Source: an uncultured Gammaproteobacteria bacterium
GTDB taxonomy: Bacteria; Patescibacteriota; Patescibacteriia; UBA1558; GWA2-36-10
NCBI GenBank assembly: GCA_964633905.1
Contig: CAZWIT010000001.1
Span: 65,535-129,534 of the forward strand
Reading direction: 5' to 3'
Length of the DNA: 64,000 nt
Position numbers and translations under genes: made by a program. Positions 1,978 through 64,000 of the stretch are shown one piece after another. Under the pieces are notes generated by a model. It saw only the letters and a program-made list of their open reading frames with translations. It searched no databases and was not told where the DNA came from. How positions within the stretch are numbered: position 1 is the stretch's first letter; every line of letters starts with the position of its first letter.

Positions 1978-2982
1978 ATGGCAAAAAAAACAATCAAAGT
2001 AGCAATTAATGGTTTTGGTCGCATTGGCCGAGCCGCTTTTAAAATAATGCAAGAATCACGTCGTTATCAGGTAGTAGCGATTAATGACTTAGCACCAGCA
2101 GATACCCTTGCTTATTTATTGAAATACGATACAGTTTATGGCCGTTATGATAAGAAAATTTCCGTAGTAGCAGGTAATATTATTGTTAATGGTAAAAAAT
2201 ATTTAGTAACAGCTATTCCTGAGCCAAAAAAATTACCTTGGAAAAAATTAGGCGTAGATGTAGTTTTAGAATGCACGGGTAGATTTGTCAAAGGCGATGA
2301 AGCCATTGACCATATTAAAGCTGGTGCTAAAAAAGTAATTTTATCTGCTCCAGCTAAAGGCGGTAGCACGGAAACTTTTTTATTGGGAGTTAATGAACAT
2401 AAGTATGCTGGCCAAAAAATAATTTCTAATGCTTCTTGTACTACTAATTGTATCGCACCAGTAGCGCAAATCATGGTTGATAAATTTGGGGTGGAAAAAG
2501 CCATGATGACCACAATTCACTCTTTTACAGCTGATCAAAAATTAGTTGACAGTCCTCACAAAGATGCTCGGCGTGGTCGGACAGCTAGTCAAAATATTGT
2601 GCCAACTTCAACGGGCGCGGCTATTTCTACTGGCCAAGTAATTCCGGAAATGGAAGGTTTATTTGATGGCTTATCAATTAGAGTCCCAACCCCAGTAGTA
2701 TCTTTAGCTGATTTTACTTTTGTTTTGAAAAAAAATGTGACAGCTGAAGAGGTTAACCGAGCTTTAAGTCGGGCGGCTAATATGCCTAGATTTAAAGGTA
2801 TTTTAGGAGTTACCGATGAAGCAGTGGTTTCCTCTGATTTTATTAAAGATTCAAGAAGTTCAATTGTTGATTTATCTCTGACTAAAGTAGTAGGTGGTAA
2901 TATGGTAAAAATTATTGCTTGGTATGATAATGAATGGGCTTATTCTAATCGTTTGGTGGAAATGATTGGGCAAATTCAATAA
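1978..2982 (+). CDS. gap: Glyceraldehyde-3-phosphate dehydrogenase
   Basis: NGFGRIGR Rossmann motif, active-site SCTTNC and the length (334 aa) are all diagnostic. Confidence 0.95.
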   Translation: MAKKTIKVAINGFGRIGRAAFKIMQESRRYQVVAINDLAPADTLAYLLKYDTVYGRYDKKISVVAGNIIVNGKKYLVTAIPEPKKLPWKKLGVDVVLECTGRFVKGDEAIDHIKAGAKKVILSAPAKGGSTETFLLGVNEHKYAGQKIISNASCTTNCIAPVAQIMVDKFGVEKAMMTTIHSFTADQKLVDSPHKDARRGRTASQNIVPTSTGAAISTGQVIPEMEGLFDGLSIRVPTPVVSLADFTFVLKKNVTAEEVNRALSRAANMPRFKGILGVTDEAVVSSDFIKDSRSSIVDLSLTKVVGGNMVKIIAWYDNEWAYSNRLVEMIGQIQ

Positions 2983-5139: not shown

Positions 5140-5295
5140 ATAAAAAAAACAGCTCAGCTTTTCCTTAAAAACTGGGCTTTTTTGTGTACAATTTTTATAT
5201 TGACAAAAATTATAGGAGTGCTAGCATATAGGCTTATCTAGCATAAAGGATGCTAAGTTCTTCGGAAGTAGTATCAAGGGGGTATAGGCAATTTG

Positions 5296-5370
5296 CCGCG
5301 CGTAGCTCAGCTGGACAGAGCACTCTCATTACGAAGAGAGAGGTCGGAGGTTCAAGTCCTTCCGCGTGCC
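5296..5370 (+). tRNA. tRNA, probably Val (anticodon TAC)
   Basis: Cloverleaf: D-arm GCTCAGCTGGACAGAGC, T-arm GGAGGTTCAAGTCCTTC, anticodon region CTCTC-ATTACGA(A)-GAGAG resembling E. coli tRNA-Val(UAC). The anticodon loop appears to be 8 nt and the acceptor stem has a mismatch, so it needs a tRNAscan check. It overlaps a spurious ORF 5250..5876. Confidence 0.6.
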
Positions 5371-5372
5371 CC

Positions 5373-5420
5373 CGGGCTCGCTGGCGTAAAAAAACGTCAG
5401 CGAGCCCTTTATTTTTGACA
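5373..5420 (+). terminator. Rho-independent terminator after the tRNA
   Basis: GGGCTCGCTGGCG-taaaaaaa-CGTCAGCGAGCCC stem followed by TTTATTTTT. Confidence 0.7.
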
Positions 5421-6006: not shown

Positions 6007-7050
6007 ATGTCAAAACAAGAAAATTCAGCAAAAAAGGAGCGTATTTTAACTGGCATGCGACCAACTGGCAGTCTGCACCTGGGACATTATGTTGGCGCTT
6101 TAGAAAATTGGATTAAATTGCAGAATGAGTATGACTGTCATTTTTTGATTGCTGATTATCAAGCCTTTGGTGATTATGCGGATAATATTTCTAAAATCAG
6201 AGATTCGGTTATCCAAGTAACAATAGATTGGTTGTCAGTTGGTTTGGATCCAAATAAAAATACTTTTGTTATTCAAAGCTATGTGCCAGAACACGCAGAG
6301 CTAGCCATGCTTTTGAGTATGATTACTCCTAGGGTATTAATTGATCGTAATCCAACTTTAAAAGACGAATCAGCTTTACAAAAAGATATTTCTTTAGGTT
6401 TTTATAATTATCCGGCTAGCCAAGCGGCTGATATACTTTTACCAAAAGCAAATTTAGTGCCAGTAGGCGAGGATCAGTTGCCTCACATTGAGCTTACTCG
6501 GGAAATTGCTAGAAGATTTAATCGTATGTACGGCGAAATTTTTCCTTTGCCCAAAGCTTTAGTAGGTAGGGTGCCGCGTTTAATAGGGATTGATGGTAAG
6601 GCTAAGATGAGTAAGAGTTTGGGTAATTGTATTTATTTGTCAGATAGTGCTGATTTGGTCGAGAAAAAAGTCAAAAAAATGTACACTGATCCAACTAGAC
6701 TTAAAGCCACTGATCCAGGTCATATTGAGGGTAATGTAGTTTTTACTTATTTAGACGCTTTTTATCATGACAAAACAGAGCTTGATAATTTAAAGAAAGA
6801 ATATCGGGCTGGTAAGCTAGGCGATGCTCAAGTAAAGAGTCTTTTGACAGGAATATTAAATAATTTTTTGGAGCCAATTAGAGAAAAAAGAGCTTTTTAT
6901 CAAGCTCATCCAGAAATGATTAAAGATGCCTTAATTGAAGGTACGCAAAAAAATAAAAAATTAGCAGCAACTACCATGGCCGAAGTTAAAGAAGCTATGA
7001 AAATAACAGCTTACGAAGACATTAAAAATATTAAAAAAATAATTTTATAA
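6007..7050 (+). CDS. trpS: Tryptophanyl-tRNA synthetase (housekeeping copy)
   Basis: TGSLHLGHYVGAL (HIGH-like) and KMSKSLGN motifs. AT-rich native codon usage. No SD. Confidence 0.95.
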   Translation: MSKQENSAKKERILTGMRPTGSLHLGHYVGALENWIKLQNEYDCHFLIADYQAFGDYADNISKIRDSVIQVTIDWLSVGLDPNKNTFVIQSYVPEHAELAMLLSMITPRVLIDRNPTLKDESALQKDISLGFYNYPASQAADILLPKANLVPVGEDQLPHIELTREIARRFNRMYGEIFPLPKALVGRVPRLIGIDGKAKMSKSLGNCIYLSDSADLVEKKVKKMYTDPTRLKATDPGHIEGNVVFTYLDAFYHDKTELDNLKKEYRAGKLGDAQVKSLLTGILNNFLEPIREKRAFYQAHPEMIKDALIEGTQKNKKLAATTMAEVKEAMKITAYEDIKNIKKIIL

Positions 7051-57592: not shown

Positions 57593-57700
57593 GGTATAAA
57601 AAACAAGACCCTTATTTATACTCCTTGGGTCTTAGGTAGGAGTTGGTGGTAGGCGGGCCCGAAGCTTGCAGCTTCGAACCCGCCGTACCGGTCGGAGGTG

Positions 57701-58525
57701 CTAGCCGCGCCGCGCCTTGGCAGCCGCGAGCAGCTGGTTGGCGATGACACGGGCCTCGCCGTTCACGGGCTTCAGCGGCTCGTGATCCAGCTTGGCAATG
57801 GCTTCATCCTGCACCGTGAGGTCACGGATGACCTCGTCGATGCTCTCGACGTCCGGGATCGCGATCGCGATCCCCATGCCGCCGTGGTCTCTCATGCAGA
57901 CCAGGCAGAGCCTCCAGACCTTGTCGCCGAGCGGAACCTGGGGCACGCCGTTCTTCCCGAACACGGGAATCCCGGCCTTGCCATCGATGCCGGTGCCCAG
58001 CTTGGTGACCATCTGCAGGGTGTCGGCCTCGTCTTCGCTGCGCTTCGTCTTCATCTGTGAGACGAACTCGCAGACACGGATGAAGACGCGGTCGGACGGG
58101 TAGTCCGGGTTGGTGGCGTAGAAGGCCAGCGCCGCGTTGATGTCCTTGGCGTACTGGTCGTTCTCCATCGCCATCGCCGACTTCTGCTGCTGCAGAGCCT
58201 CGATGCAATCGCGGACCCGGTCGTGGTCATGGTTCATCATGCCCACGGCCTCGTCCTGGTCGGGCCAGATCCGCATGACGAGCATGCGGTAGCCGTCGCC
58301 CGGAACCTGCAGGCCGCGCCGACGGTCGTCGATGACGACCGACAGGGGCTTGGCGGTGCCGATGCCGTGTTCGGCCGCGCCGTCTTGGACGTACACGACG
58401 CCGTAGGCGTTGCGGTACTCGCTGCGGGTGTTGCCGGTGGCGGTGGTCGGAGCGGTGGCGGTGGTCGGAGCGGTGGCGGCGGGAGCAGCGGCCTTGGGGG
58501 CCTTGGTGTTGGTCTTACGAGCCAT
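57701..58525 (-). CDS. Hypothetical 274-aa protein, ~65% GC foreign cassette gene 'B' (Ala/Pro/Thr-rich N-terminal tail)
   Basis: Coherent high-GC3 codon usage on the minus strand. SD AGGAGG 8 nt before ATG. Own consensus promoter P2 and downstream hairpins. The N-terminus MARKTNTKAPKAAAPAATAPTTATAPTTATG… is low-complexity. No motif recognised. Confidence 0.6.
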   Translation of the reverse strand: MARKTNTKAPKAAAPAATAPTTATAPTTATGNTRSEYRNAYGVVYVQDGAAEHGIGTAKPLSVVIDDRRRGLQVPGDGYRMLVMRIWPDQDEAVGMMNHDHDRVRDCIEALQQQKSAMAMENDQYAKDINAALAFYATNPDYPSDRVFIRVCEFVSQMKTKRSEDEADTLQMVTKLGTGIDGKAGIPVFGKNGVPQVPLGDKVWRLCLVCMRDHGGMGIAIAIPDVESIDEVIRDLTVQDEAIAKLDHEPLKPVNGEARVIANQLLAAAKARRG

Positions 58526-58623
58526 CTTGCTTACCTCCTGAAAATTAGAATGTGCACATCCCCTAAAGTGACAACAGTACCAACAGTCAGTACGTTTATT
58601 AGGGGATTTTTCATTATATCATA

Positions 58624-58652
58624 TATACAAATATTTGTCAAGGGTATTGAAA
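58624..58652 (-). promoter_or_regulatory. Promoter P2 (minus): TTGACA-17-TG-n-TATAAT
   Basis: Minus strand TTGACAaatatttgtatatatgaTATAAT. Confidence 0.65.
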
Positions 58653-58713
58653 AGCCCCGGCACTAGGTGCGTCGGGGCTTGGGGCGAAGTGGTACAACAC
58701 AGTCGGCTTGCTA

Positions 58714-60820: not shown

Positions 60821-62275
60821 CTAAGGGATATTTTGCCAGCCTAAGGTGGTTGGTAATTCTTCGCTACTTAAAGTTAAATCTATTTCACCGTGATTGGCTG
60901 GAGGCGGAGGAGTGTTTTGATTTTGTCCTTCACGCTCAGTATCTAAATTTTTGAAGCTGACTTTGTTTTCATCAAAGAATAAACGGACAACGCCAGTAGG
61001 GCCATTACGGTGTTTATCAACATGAATTTCGGCTAAATGTTTTTCTTCTTCTGGGCAGTCACCTCTAGTTTTATCTTTGGCGCGTCTATAAATAAACATT
61101 ACCACATCGGCATCTTGCTCAATTGATCCAGATTCACGTAAATCAGCCAGTTTTGGTATAGCCGGGGATCTATTCTCAACAGCACGGGATAGCTGAGAAA
61201 GCGCAAGTACAGGAATATCAAGTTCTCTAGCAATTTGTTTTAAGGCTCTGGAAATTTCTGATATTTCTTGCACTCTATTTTCTTGACGACCACCGCCATC
61301 CATTAATTGTAAATAGTCAACCACTAAAAAGCCAAGATTGTGTTCCATTTTTAAGCGTCTAGCTTTAGTGCGGATTTCCATGATATTAGCATTAGCAGAA
61401 TCATCTATAAAAATTGGTGCTTCTGAAAGTACCCCCATAGCCCTACCAATGCGAGGGAAGTCGTCGTCATCTTCTTTATCAGATAGTCTGCCGGTGCGCA
61501 TTTTCCATAAATCAACTTGAGCTTCTGAAGCAAGCAAACGATCGACTAGCTGTTCTTTTGACATTTCTAAAGAAAAGATGCCGACCGCTACTTTGGAATT
61601 TACGGCAATATGTCTTACCATATCTAGGGCAAAGGTGGTTTTACCCAAAGAAGGTCGAGCAGCTAAAATTACTAGATCGGAATTTTGTAAACCAGATAAA
61701 AGTTTGTCTAAAGCTGTGTAACCAGTGGGAATACCACGGGTACCTAAGCCACCCATTTTGTGTAGTTCGTCAATACGAGTAAAGGCTTCGCCCAAGACGG
61801 TTTTAATAGGTATAAAATTCTTTTTCAAAGATTCTTGAGAAATGGAAAATAGCTTTTGTTCGGCTCTATCTAATAGTTTTTCTACATCTTCAGATTCACT
61901 AAAGCTAAATTCGCTAATTTCTGAAGCAGCTTGTTCTAATTTTCTTAAAGTAGATTTTTTGCGAATAATATTAGCATAGGTCAAGACATGAGAAGCATTG
62001 GGCACAGCTGCAGTTAGATCAGCTAAGTAGGCTTTGCCACCAACCATTTCTAATTGTTTTTTTTCATTTAAGCGATTAGCTAGAGATAAAATATCAATTG
62101 GCTCGTGTTTTTCAAACAAATCTAAGATAGTTTGGTAAATAATACCATTAATATCTTTGTAGAAATCGCTAGGTTTTAAAGTATCACCAATTTTAATAAC
62201 AGCATCTTTATCGATGAGTAGAGCGCCTAAGATACTAGCCTCGGCTTCTAAATTTTGGGGAGGAATTTTTGGCAT
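60821..62275 (-). CDS. dnaB: Replicative DNA helicase DnaB
   Basis: N-terminal DnaB domain, Walker A ARPSLGKT, 484 aa. Confidence 0.9.
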   Translation of the reverse strand: MPKIPPQNLEAEASILGALLIDKDAVIKIGDTLKPSDFYKDINGIIYQTILDLFEKHEPIDILSLANRLNEKKQLEMVGGKAYLADLTAAVPNASHVLTYANIIRKKSTLRKLEQAASEISEFSFSESEDVEKLLDRAEQKLFSISQESLKKNFIPIKTVLGEAFTRIDELHKMGGLGTRGIPTGYTALDKLLSGLQNSDLVILAARPSLGKTTFALDMVRHIAVNSKVAVGIFSLEMSKEQLVDRLLASEAQVDLWKMRTGRLSDKEDDDDFPRIGRAMGVLSEAPIFIDDSANANIMEIRTKARRLKMEHNLGFLVVDYLQLMDGGGRQENRVQEISEISRALKQIARELDIPVLALSQLSRAVENRSPAIPKLADLRESGSIEQDADVVMFIYRRAKDKTRGDCPEEEKHLAEIHVDKHRNGPTGVVRLFFDENKVSFKNLDTEREGQNQNTPPPPANHGEIDLTLSSEELPTTLGWQNIP

Positions 62276-62377
62276 GGGAAATATTGTAGTCTTAGCTTAA
62301 CCTATTTTGTTTATTTTTTCAAGCTAAAATATAGACAGTTTATACTCATTTTAAATACAGCTTAAATAAATTTACCT

Positions 62378-62406
62378 TGACAATTGTCAAAAAATAATTT
62401 ATAATA
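62378..62406 (+). promoter_or_regulatory. Consensus promoter TTGACA-17-TATAAT upstream of the tRNA-Lys region (overlapping palindromic TTGACAATTGTCAA)
   Basis: TTGACAattgtcaaaaaataattTATAAT. The palindrome also gives a minus-strand TTGACA for divergent dnaB. Confidence 0.6.
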
Positions 62407-62429
62407 TTTCCGTATTTTTTAATTTTTTT

Positions 62430-62490
62430 GCGCCTAAGCTTAAGTCGGTAGATCCGCCAGCTGGCGGACTATTAAGCAAACGGTCGTAGG
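62430..62490 (+). pseudogene. tRNA-Lys 5' fragment / degenerate duplicate with a palindromic insertion
   Basis: GCGCCTAAGCTTAAGTCGGTAGATCCGCCAGCTGGCGGACTATTAAGCAAACGGTCGTAGG aligns to the first two-thirds of the intact tRNA-Lys 98 nt downstream. The D-stem is disrupted, and the palindrome CCGCCAGCTGGCGG replaces the anticodon-stem 5' side. No T-arm or acceptor 3' strand. Confidence 0.6.
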
Positions 62491-62527
62491 CGTGCATTGA
62501 ACATCAAAATTTATACTTTATTTATAT

Positions 62528-62603
62528 GCGCCTATAGCTCAGTCGGTAGAGCAGTTGCCTTTTAAGCAAACGGTCGTAGGTTCGATTCCTACTGGGCGCA
62601 CCA
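62528..62603 (+). tRNA. tRNA-Lys (anticodon TTT), CCA encoded
   Basis: GCGCCTA-TA-GCTCAGTCGGTAGAGC-A-GTTGC-CTTTTAA-GCAAA-CGGTC-GTAGG-TTCGATT-CCTAC-TGGGCGC-A-CCA. Confidence 0.85.
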
Positions 62604-62731
62604 TTCTTACAGCTTCATGGCTGTTTTTTTATTTATTAAAAATCCTTGACTAAGTATCTTTTTTATTTTATAGTATTTACCTATTTTGTTCCCCCCAGAA
62701 AGTAAAACCCAAAACGAAGGAGCGGATTGCT

Positions 62732-63118
62732 ATGCCAACTGACCTGCTGGATATTTTTCATATTATTAGTAACGGTTGTAAAGTAAAAGTTACTGAAGAA
62801 AAGACTAAAGAGATTAGGAAAAAAATTCGCACACTGGATGATCCAGAACAAATCAGGTCTTGCCTGCGTATTCTCTTGAGCTATTATCCAGAAGAAAGTT
62901 TGATCGAATTTTGTTTGGATAGCTTGTTTATGAATGCTCGTCCTAATTACTTGAGTGGTCCTAAGCATGATATTTGGATCAGAGAAGTGTGTAAATTAGC
63001 TGAAGCCATCAAAGATCTTCGTGTCCCATATTGGGAATTTGTTATGTATAGAAAGGTTAATTTCTATTGTCCGCAATTGGTAGATAAAATCTGGAAAGAT
63101 GGGGTGCCTGCTGGTTAG
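62732..63118 (+). CDS. Hypothetical 128-aa protein (SD-bearing, ~43% GC)
   Basis: Promoter TTGACT-17-TATAGT at ~62647-62675. SD GAAGGAG 9 nt before ATG. No motif recognised. Confidence 0.5.
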   Translation: MPTDLLDIFHIISNGCKVKVTEEKTKEIRKKIRTLDDPEQIRSCLRILLSYYPEESLIEFCLDSLFMNARPNYLSGPKHDIWIREVCKLAEAIKDLRVPYWEFVMYRKVNFYCPQLVDKIWKDGVPAG

Positions 63119-63253
63119 TAGCGCCTAAGGATATGACCCTGTTGTGTTTGAAGCGACAGGGTTTTTATTTGCCTAATTTTTTTTTAGCTTTAAAATTATG
63201 GCGAGTCTTTGTTTCTTTGTCAGCACATCTCTAGACAAGCAGGAGGTTGATCA

Positions 63254-63850
63254 ATGTTTTCCAGTGAAGTACTCAACACCAAGTGGTTGTTTACAAATAT
63301 TTTTGAGTGTTTGCAAATCAAGTTTGATGCACAAGAGATTAGCCTAGATAGGCCGATTCGGGCAGTTATTACTGCTAATAACACAGAACAAAGGCTTGAA
63401 AATCAACGTATGCAATATAATCGTTTTTTGTATCTACGTTTGGCTAAAAAAATATGGATTTTGTGTTTGGGTGCTAATGAAACCGATGATGGTGTTAATT
63501 ATATAGCAGATTTATCTGCTTTGCGTATTTTTGATACCAAATTGCAAGCTATGGAAACTATTGCTGAAATTAAGGCTAGACTTAGGTCTAGTCGCACTTT
63601 TCATTATTCCTTGCTTTGTGCTCGGGCTAGTAATGATTTACTTTTTCCTTTAGAAAGTATGCATTATGAAATGATGCAGGTTTTTTCTGATGTTGATCCA
63701 AATATTTTTTGGGTAGAAGCTCGTCATCGTGATCTTAGTTTTGGTGATAATCAATTTCGTGATCCTCATTTACAAGCTGGTTTTTATAAAGAAAATGCTT
63801 TGACACATTTTGTCAATTTAATGGCTAATGTTTTGGTAACGCCTGACTAA
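63254..63850 (+). CDS. Hypothetical 198-aa protein (SD-bearing)
   Basis: SD AGGAGG 7 nt before ATG. No motif recognised. Confidence 0.5.
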   Translation: MFSSEVLNTKWLFTNIFECLQIKFDAQEISLDRPIRAVITANNTEQRLENQRMQYNRFLYLRLAKKIWILCLGANETDDGVNYIADLSALRIFDTKLQAMETIAEIKARLRSSRTFHYSLLCARASNDLLFPLESMHYEMMQVFSDVDPNIFWVEARHRDLSFGDNQFRDPHLQAGFYKENALTHFVNLMANVLVTPD

Positions 63851-64000
63851 ATTTTGTGTAGAGATAAAATTTTGATAAAGTCTAGCCACTCTGGCTAGAC
63901 TTTTTATTTAAAATAAGCATTGACTTTGTTTATTTTTTATGTTATAAAATTTTATGCATTTTATCAGTCCCTTTCACTTGTTGGTCAAGCAAAACACGGA

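Follow-up and report, generated by a model that had tools for sequence, protein, structure and literature searches.

At the integrase attachment (att) sites of genomic islands and prophages, partial tRNA repeats reproduce the 3′ portion of the tRNA gene; they enclose kilobases of cargo and are accompanied by an integrase. Mitochondrial tRNAs that lack the T arm and tRNA-like modules such as YrlA (RF02553) keep a working anticodon arm, or the T and D arms, and tandem tRNA duplicates and pseudogenes can evolve in concert. GC-rich palindromes flank tRNA genes in the AT-rich mitochondrial genomes of fungi, where the PstI palindromes of Neurospora and the GC clusters of yeast form multi-copy families. 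In addition, a transcribed spacer of an E. coli tRNA operon reportedly yields a functional RNA, the 3′ETS-leuZ sponge. We have analyzed a stretch of 64,000 nt from contig CAZWIT010000001.1, of the Patescibacteriota lineage (hereafter the window), in which the gene for tRNA-Lys(UUU) is preceded by a remodelled copy of itself that lacks the T arm. Judged from the sequences of the window and its relatives, this copy may well be a tandem tRNA-Lys duplicate that has turned into a conserved, dispensable and structured leader element, evolving in concert with the tRNA; we give this reading a probability of about 0.55. Literature searches found no described counterpart of the element.

Anatomy of the copy and its transcription unit

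The features of the locus are collected in Table 1. Relatives were taken as homologues of DnaB, together with their contigs, and were placed on a neighbor-joining (NJ) tree of that protein. The first-pass annotation of the window had described a partial tRNA-Lys copy 98 nt upstream of the gene. This was borne out by the call of the gene itself with ARAGORN and Rfam, by alignment of the repeats and by an exact block of 19 nt. The distance of 98 nt runs from start to start; the gap between copy and gene is just 32 nt. The exact block TTAAGCAAACGGTCGTAGG matches at 19/19 positions between 62472-62490 in the copy and 62562-80 in the tRNA, where shuffled sequences lead one to expect 0 matches. Copy and tRNA also share AGTCGGTAGA (10/10) and GCGCCTA (7/7). 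The leader is repeated too, with about 11 nt similar and a 34-nt direct repeat (D1, 76%).

Two parts of the copy differ from the tRNA. The D-stem had been noted as altered, and its 5′ strand is indeed rewritten; the copy-specific segment AGCTTAAG plus A62436 forms a 9-nt block AAGCTTAAG, and the segment bears an 8-nt palindrome GCTTAAGC at 62438-62445. The perfect palindrome reported to replace part of the anticodon stem proves to extend over 16 nt. Its core CCGCCAGCTGGCGG is exact at 62454-62467 and occurs once in the window. It stands in for the 5′ strand of the anticodon stem, and the tRNA segment that it replaced, GCAGTTGC, comprises the end of the D-stem and that strand.

The copy had also been described as a 5′ fragment of the first two-thirds of the tRNA, missing the T-arm and the 3′ half of the acceptor. 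The T arm is absent as stated, but the 3′ acceptor strand is present, since TAGGCGT pairs with GCGCCTA. In relatives GGCGC(A) aligns to the 3′ acceptor strand and discriminator of the tRNA, given a gap of ~19 nt for the T arm. Both acceptor strands are kept, so that only the T arm and CCA are gone, and the description as a 5′ fragment does not hold. By alignment the copy appears to be a duplicate of the whole unit (leader, tRNA and part of the trailer) minus the T arm (~19 nt) and CCA.

One may ask if the copy is a functional tRNA of an unusual kind, armless or containing an intron. It has an acceptor-like stem and a D-loop with GG, and the copies of two relatives (L085 and L095) have the anticodon-loop sequence CUUUUAA. 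Yet ARAGORN reports only the gene at 62528-62603, and there is no Rfam tRNA match over the copy at E ≤ 10 (62300-62720). The copy has no T arm, CCA or anticodon stem, the loop of its hairpin is 4 nt, and in the window the anticodon-loop sequence is CUAUUAA. With both programs negative over 62430-62494, the complete or intron-containing tRNA that the first-pass annotation had allowed for is hardly credible. Further candidates were rejected. Rfam gave no match of any family over the copy at the gathering or E ≤ 10 thresholds. A T-box leader has no match at E ≤ 10, and the downstream gene is the tRNA itself. A small antisense protein (62399-62497, minus strand, 32 aa) is open in L095 (34 aa) and has no Shine-Dalgarno (SD) sequence; in L085 the open reading frame (ORF) loses its ATG (20 aa from a TTG start), and the differences are all non-synonymous.

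The promoter of the unit lies upstream of the copy and had been missed in the earlier reading. It is the sole good promoter of the unit, and is kept in 7/7 aligned relatives. In those without the copy it stands at an unchanged distance from the true tRNA, and promoter and CCGTATTTT leader run straight into the tRNA. Transcription would start near 62412, judging from the position of the −10 box. The promoter scan called none between copy and tRNA, and the TTGAAC/TTGAAA motifs of the spacer were rejected by eye as a promoter whose start site would fall inside the tRNA. Given the sole strong promoter upstream of the copy and a terminator after the tRNA, we infer that the transcript carries the copy within the 5′ leader of pre-tRNA-Lys. 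By the positions of promoter and terminator it lies within the tRNA transcription unit and outside the mature tRNA, as expected of a spacer RNA. The hairpin at 62453-62468 was not called as an intrinsic terminator or attenuator; it is followed by CTATTAAG here and by CTTTTAAG in relatives.

Table 1. Features of the tRNA-Lys locus and its neighbors in the window
Feature	Position	Strand	Basis or remark
T-arm-less remodelled tRNA-Lys copy (pseudo-tRNA leader element)	62430..62494	+	Alignment, repeat search
P1 5′ strand GCGCCTA, copied from tRNA 5′ acceptor strand	62430..62436	+	Folding
Copy-specific segment AGCTTAAG, in place of D-stem 5′ strand	62437..62444	+	Alignment
D-loop copy AGTCGGTAGA, identical to D-loop of own genome's tRNA	62443..62452	+	Alignment
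P3 hairpin TCCGCC-AGCT-GGCGGA, perfect 16-nt palindrome TCCGCCAGCTGGCGGA	62453..62468	+	Palindrome search
Copy of anticodon loop, 3′ anticodon-stem strand, variable loop and T-stem start, CTATTAAGCAAACGGTCGTAGG	62469..62490	+	21/22 to tRNA (repeat D2)
P1 3′ strand TAGGCGT, equivalent to tRNA 3′ acceptor strand (GGCGC in relatives); closes the element	62487..62493	+	Pairing, alignment
Sigma-70-type promoter TTGACA-17-TATAAT (12/12)	62377..62405	+	Promoter scan; upstream of copy
Initial transcribed region and U-rich leader with conserved CCGTATTTT block	62406..62429	+	Last ~11 nt repeated before real tRNA
AU-rich spacer, also leader of real tRNA	62495..62527	+	Alignment
Functional tRNA-Lys(UUU), CCA encoded	62528..62603	+	ARAGORN; Rfam 73 bits
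Intrinsic terminator ACAGC-TTCATG-GCTGT (62609-62624) and T run, end of tRNA unit	62609..62631	+	Terminator scan
dnaB	60821..62275	−	Divergent from tRNA-Lys unit; copy lies between dnaB and the ORFan set
Separate unit: promoter TTGACT-17-TATAGT (62646-62674), SD AAGGAG (62717-62722), 128-aa ORFan (62732-63118), terminator (63135-63163)	62646..63163	+	
SD AGGAGG, 198-aa ORFan (63254-63850), terminator (63877-63903)	63241..63903	+	

Distribution and conservation among relatives

On the DnaB tree the carriers of the copy belong to two clades that are sisters: clade A (P0001-5), and clade B, in which P0007 and P0009 have it and P0006 and P0008 do not. It is complete in L085/L086/L087 (DnaB 97% identical to that of the window) and in L095 (81%). 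L088 (92%) has the copy, with its contig ending within the hairpin, and L098 (81%) has a partial copy in which the hairpin loop is AACT. The copy is absent from L089/L090 (81%) and L091/L092 (80%), where the unit from promoter to tRNA is otherwise identical, and the junction in L089 and L091 is clean tRNA. L093/L094 (80%) fall outside clades A and B and do not have tRNA-Lys at this site. The outgroup L100 (78%, or 79% in one alignment) has no copy, and its tRNA-Lys is elsewhere, in the opposite orientation. The distant L009 and L015 (59% and 56%) have tRNA-Lys adjoining dnaB and no copy.

The nearest DnaB proteins among GTDB species representatives come from Patescibacteria/CPR (candidate phyla radiation) metagenome-assembled genomes, at ≤66% identity. 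Among 80 such dnaB loci, tRNA-Lys lies beside dnaB in only two, neither with a copy. An nhmmer profile run on all fetched loci recovered only the known copies, real tRNA-Lys genes and weak matches in apparent coding sequence. A homologue of the 128-aa ORF downstream of the tRNA was used to look for the 3′ half of the L088 copy; the contig reached in this way begins inside the tRNA. The hairpin, the AAGCTTAAG block and a spacer motif are common to the carriers, which argues for a single origin, and one gain with two losses would be the simplest history. Deletion should be easy because direct repeats (leader plus GCGCCTA) flank the element, and its absence from units that are otherwise identical indicates that it is not essential.

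Two side observations concern the contigs themselves. Three independent Logan contigs from different samples (L084, L088 and L098) stop in or at the GC hairpin, and others are broken within the tRNA. This may be due to low coverage, to strain heterogeneity, or to the way in which the repeat and palindrome affect assembly. In L096, whose DnaB protein is the same as that of L095, an insertion sequence with an rve-type transposase (292 aa) occupies 105-983, with a junction near 995. The insertion point is precisely the position expected for the beginning of the −35 box of the tRNA-Lys promoter, and the tRNA-Lys unit is no longer beside dnaB.

The copy-specific part of the element is 25 nt, namely AAGCTTAAG and the hairpin. 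Between the window and L095 it is identical at 25/25 positions (hairpin 16/16), and elsewhere the same comparison gives 55% identity in the dnaB-proximal intergenic sequence, 68% in the leader and 69% in the spacer. By our own arithmetic the chance of 25/25 at an identity of 0.6 per site is about 3e-6. The segment at 62437-62444 is identical in the window, L085, L095 and L098, with one change in L088. Since these 25 nt have no tRNA counterpart, conversion from the tRNA cannot explain their conservation. The tRNA-like parts behave in another way, following the tRNA of the same genome. The D-loop is AGTC-GGTAGA in clade A, and AGCCTGGTAGA in both copy and tRNA of clade B (and in the tRNA of the outgroup). 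In L095 the leaders of copy and tRNA are identical over 15 nt, TTATTAACATGCGCC, and in the window the block identical between copy and tRNA reaches into TAGG. The simplest explanation is that the tandem copies exchange sequence, by gene conversion or template switching.

Three variants are found in the copy-specific sequence: a C to T change in L085, giving a U.G pair, a G to A change in the hairpin loop of L098, and an A to T change in L088 at a position predicted to be unpaired. All three fit an RNA model in which the acceptor strands pair (P1) and the palindrome forms a hairpin (P3), and each breaks the symmetry of a DNA palindrome. As support for constraint on the RNA this is weak evidence, with p ~ 0.16 for the two hairpin changes by our own estimate. 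The variants also bear on the idea that the conserved parts act as DNA, with GCTTAAGC and TCCGCCAGCTGGCGGA bound by a dimeric regulator or recognized by a restriction or recombination enzyme. The two perfect palindromes make up both of the conserved copy-specific blocks, and lie ~30-55 bp past the tRNA-Lys start site, in the divergent promoter region shared with dnaB, as such sites might. Yet the natural variants lose the DNA symmetry while suiting an RNA hairpin or loop, the P1 strands are retained although a DNA operator would have no need of them, and no regulator gene is nearby. We consider a role as DNA sites improbable.

Predicted folding of the RNA and its possible role

P1 (GCGCC with GGCG-Y) is predicted with a pair probability of ~1 in all three full copies (0.93-1.0 for the window). 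It is retained in spite of very different contexts of its 3′ strand, these being TAGGCGT, AAGGCGC and AGTGGCGC in the three copies. P3 has pair probabilities of 0.99-1.0 in the window and L095. In L085 it is less well supported, with ~0.95 for the four inner pairs and 0.11 and 0.49 for the two outer ones. An alternative helix, P2 (GCUUAA with UUAAGC), has a pair probability of 0.02-0.25 in the isolated element, and appears only in the minimum free energy (MFE) structure of the full precursor. The copy-specific GCUUAAG, which contains the lysine codon AAG, is complementary to UUAAGC in the anticodon-loop segment of the copy, and also to the anticodon loop of mature tRNA-Lys. Folding of the full precursor gives a swapped alternative, in which the 5′ strand of the copy pairs with the 3′ strand of the tRNA, and the 3′ strand of the copy with the 5′ strand of the tRNA.

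The following course of events would account for these properties. A tRNA-Lys unit, leader plus gene, was duplicated in tandem and the upstream copy was then remodelled: the T arm and CCA were lost, the D-stem 5′ strand became AAGCTTAAG, and a stable GC hairpin supplanted the 5′ strand of the anticodon stem. The element would be transcribed within the leader and probably released by RNase P cleavage at G62528. Its RNA is predicted to fold into a closed unit, comprising P1 from the duplicated acceptor strands and P3 as an apical hairpin. The likeliest action is in cis, with P1 sequestering the duplicate 5′ acceptor strand from the 3′ acceptor strand of the tRNA, for which it could otherwise vie with the tRNA's own 5′ strand. 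The swapped fold shows the strand competition that P1 would prevent, and insulation of the tRNA in this way provides a selective reason for P1 without any function in trans. The conserved hairpin and AAGCTTAAG point beyond insulation; they may, for example, stabilize the leader, modulate processing or serve to bind a partner once the RNA is released. The structured leader may also influence how the precursor folds, how it is processed or how stable it is, or it may persist as a small RNA. Gene conversion would keep the tRNA-homologous parts in step, and the direct repeats would allow the element to be lost easily. The first-pass annotation had offered a small RNA derived from a tRNA as one of its options. 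This fits the better of the two, given the position in the transcription unit, the closed predicted fold and the copy-specific conservation, with expression and function being predictions from sequence.

A more ambitious version would make the leader a tRNA-Lys-derived riboregulator of its own tRNA. The precursor would have two mutually exclusive folds, one with local P1 and a normal cloverleaf and the other with swapped acceptor strands that RNase P is unable to process, and mature tRNA-Lys, or a protein that binds it, would feed back on maturation. This is modelled from the predicted folds and we regard it as a long shot. If true, CPR bacteria would have a class of tRNA-derived cis-regulator that has not been described before.

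Several observations weigh against a selected leader element. Its folding z-scores are modest, at −1.3 to −2.3. No compensatory covariation was seen among the three complete and two partial copies, a small sample, and the single double change rests on a doubtful alignment. The element is missing from two sister lineages, and a structure-agnostic pattern scan of the Joint Genome Institute (JGI) metagenomes found no further members, giving one chance match inside a coding region. Both conserved blocks are palindromes, for which binding of a protein to the DNA could account as well. The 3′ third of the copy with the spacer (window 62469-62527 against L085:3745-3804) is only 56-68% identical, while the rest of the dnaB-tRNA intergenic region is 98-100% identical between these two sequences. 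This patch of ~60 nt suggests that a divergent allele has replaced it by recombination, and that the 3′ third of the copy is only loosely constrained.

Much of this would be expected if the copy were a neutral, decaying tandem pseudogene, conserved through gene conversion and keeping P1 only because an unpaired duplicate acceptor strand is harmful. Gene conversion is evident, the element has been lost twice with no visible consequence, its 3′ third has diverged strongly between close relatives, and covariation is lacking. Between tRNA-Glu and tRNA-Val, L095 also has other degenerate partial tRNA copies that bear GC hairpins, so that such debris recurs in the clade. What a decaying pseudogene does not readily explain is the identity of the 25 nt that have no tRNA counterpart, set in DNA where neutral identity is ~55-69%, and the persistence of a perfect hairpin of 75% GC in a genome of 34% GC. 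We therefore treat neutral decay as possible but doubtful.

The hairpin might also be a small mobile GC palindrome, or one generated by template switching, that landed in a duplicated tRNA, the element being a by-product. The L095 case bears on this. An insert of ~225 nt separates tRNA-Glu from tRNA-Val there (L095:7092-7318, minus strand; also L096:5203-5426), while in the window the two genes are adjacent (57472/57474). Within it lie a degenerate copy of the 3′ part of tRNA-Glu, with CCA at its end, and, upstream of tRNA-Val, a tRNA-like 5′ fragment, GGGGCATATAGCTCAGTTGGTTA followed by CCTGCCTGCCGGCAGGCAGG and GAGCAC, where CCTGCCTGCCGGCAGGCAGG is a perfect 20-nt GC palindrome placed right after the D-loop, nearly the site that the hairpin occupies in the tRNA-Lys copy. 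Partial tRNA duplicates with GC palindromes thus recur at tRNA loci of the clade. This recurrence speaks for an origin by mutation, through template switching or a process like that of GC clusters, and tempers a functional reading of the element. The tRNA segment replaced in the tRNA-Lys copy is moreover itself a quasi-palindrome. However, the two palindromes differ in sequence, and a search for the palindrome as a repeat, suggested at first pass, gave one copy in the 64-kb window and only weak matches in apparent coding sequence in ~718 kb of window and loci. Mobility would account for the origin of the hairpin and not for its lasting conservation, and as an account of the whole element it is unlikely.

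Our preference accordingly stays with a duplicate retained as a structured leader. If the conservation reflects selection, a tRNA duplicate has been exapted as a structured leader in genome-reduced, uncultured Patescibacteria, whose RNA processing and regulation are almost unknown. It would also exemplify gene conversion between a gene and a non-functional copy over tracts of 10-20 nt, and the avoidance of precursor misfolding in the presence of duplicated acceptor strands. If the copy is merely a slowly decaying pseudogene, the finding is an ordinary one.

Downstream genes, other tRNA loci and known systems

Beyond the tRNA-Lys terminator lie ORFs of 128, 198 and 135 aa that are orphans (ORFans), followed by the gene for arginyl-tRNA synthetase (ArgRS); dnaB is on the upstream side. 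Promoter and ORF scans confirmed the downstream promoter and the two SD-bearing ORFs of the first-pass annotation. The 128-aa ORFan has 3 homologues and the 198-aa ORFan 5, the latter in a search of 1.84 billion representatives. The downstream ORFans gave no match in Pfam, PHROG, PADLOC or NCBIfam, and an AlphaFold2 model of the 198-aa protein has a predicted local distance difference test (pLDDT) score of 35.6 and is unusable. The 128-aa and 198-aa ORFs are real, fast-evolving ORFans. They have their own promoter and terminators, and nothing links them to the copy.

These genes might be cargo if the copy were a decayed attachment site or a recombination scar of an island. Such a site or scar was one option of the first-pass annotation, which had also suggested a look for an integrase beyond the end of the window. 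It is true that the gene content between tRNA-Lys and ArgRS varies, with ORFans here and Orn/DAP decarboxylase and other genes in L089, L091 and L095, and that the ORFans have almost no homologues. But the duplicate takes in the leader and sits on the upstream side, at a distance of 32 nt from the gene. No integrase was found in the window or within 4 kb beyond the tRNA, nor integrase domains in the neighboring genes there and past the window's end, where the 135-aa ORF is followed by ArgRS. A second copy of the 3′ 23-25 nt of the tRNA is absent even with 3 mismatches from L085 and L001, which together reach ArgRS, and the locus has no match to phage or defense families. The tandem arrangement recurs in L085/86/87, L088, L095 and L098, a recurrence among relatives that the first-pass annotation had itself named as refuting its reading, and it is kept in relatives whose downstream genes differ. 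The att-scar reading is effectively refuted, and a partial tRNA repeat beside a tRNA gene need not signal an island boundary.

Other features were seen around tRNA-Lys in the relatives. A GC-rich structured element of up to ~165-190 nt, starting with TTCGACTCGTCGCGTCTGACGCGACTTCGCTCATGG, follows the tRNA-Lys CCA in L095:2455-2652 and L091:2535-2740 (both minus strand). Its first ~50 nt also follow the tRNA-Glu pseudo-copy of L095 (7180-7235, minus strand), and its first ~15 nt follow tRNA-Val (7000-7014, minus strand). The L095 copy folds with z = −2.95; the element has no Rfam match and is absent from the window. In L089, which lacks the copy, the tRNA-Lys trailer (2700-2779, minus strand) has the hairpin GCTCAC-TTCG-GTGAGC and then GATGGCGCGGAC, which is similar both to GCTAAAAGTGGCGC in the L085 pseudo-copy and to the 3′ acceptor end of a tRNA in degenerate form. 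The outgroup (L100:254-667, P0026) has a GC-rich ORF of ~137-157 aa between tRNA-Lys and dnaB in an AT-rich genome, another GC-rich insertion beside a tRNA gene. In the window, a 12-nt exact direct repeat ACCTATTTTGTT at 62300-62311 and 62679-62690 flanks the entire tRNA-Lys unit, one copy falling within the dnaB promoter region, which is conserved, and the other directly after the −10 box of the 128-aa ORF promoter. Both are kept in clade A (L085, L101) and not in clade B; the repeat may be due to chance or be a shared regulatory motif.

The window has a GC content of ~34% and encodes PBP2, MurF, L21, RecR, YbaB and DnaB. A search of the window found no partial duplicates of its other tRNAs. 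To the tRNA at 5295-5373 (Rfam tRNA 42 bits) ARAGORN assigns an anticodon of 4 bases, 'tacg'. The anticodon stem is CTCTC/GAGAG and the loop, ATTACGAA, has 8 nt, which gives it the look of a tRNA-Arg(ACG) whose anticodon loop is enlarged. Just 3′ of tRNA-Glu/tRNA-Val and their terminator, 57600-58700 is a patch of ~58% GC that encodes a 274-aa ORF (57701-58525, minus strand) with an N-terminus rich in Ala, Thr and Pro, for which Pfam, PHROG, PADLOC, NCBIfam and PDB gave no match. The patch is also present in L082, an independent Logan assembly of the same strain, and a 97% relative has an ORF of different length at its position. It may have been acquired horizontally.

The comparison with known systems is then as follows. 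With integrase att repeats the locus shares a partial tRNA duplicate beside an intact gene and variable gene content on one side. It differs in that the duplicate is upstream, 32 nt away, and comprises the leader and both acceptor strands with only the T arm lacking, and in having no integrase or 3′ repeat. Like T-arm-lacking tRNAs and YrlA, the element would be a tRNA-derived RNA with an arm missing or altered. In contrast to these, its anticodon arm is destroyed, and the YrlA model touches only the real tRNA (E = 0.65). A short, perfect, GC-rich palindrome beside a tRNA gene in an AT-rich genome, with a second case at the tRNA-Val of L095, recalls the fungal palindromes; here it is single-copy per locus, sits inside a tRNA-derived scaffold, and is found nowhere else in the window. 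By analogy with 3′ETS-leuZ, a non-tRNA segment of a precursor released by processing could be a stable and selected RNA, although the element here is on the 5′ side, is itself derived from a tRNA, and is known from its sequence. Tandem tRNA duplicates that evolve in concert share with the element its probable origin by tandem duplication and homogenization by gene conversion. Unlike them, the tRNA-Lys copy is without a promoter or terminator of its own, and has a closed hairpin structure with conserved sequence that is specific to the copy.

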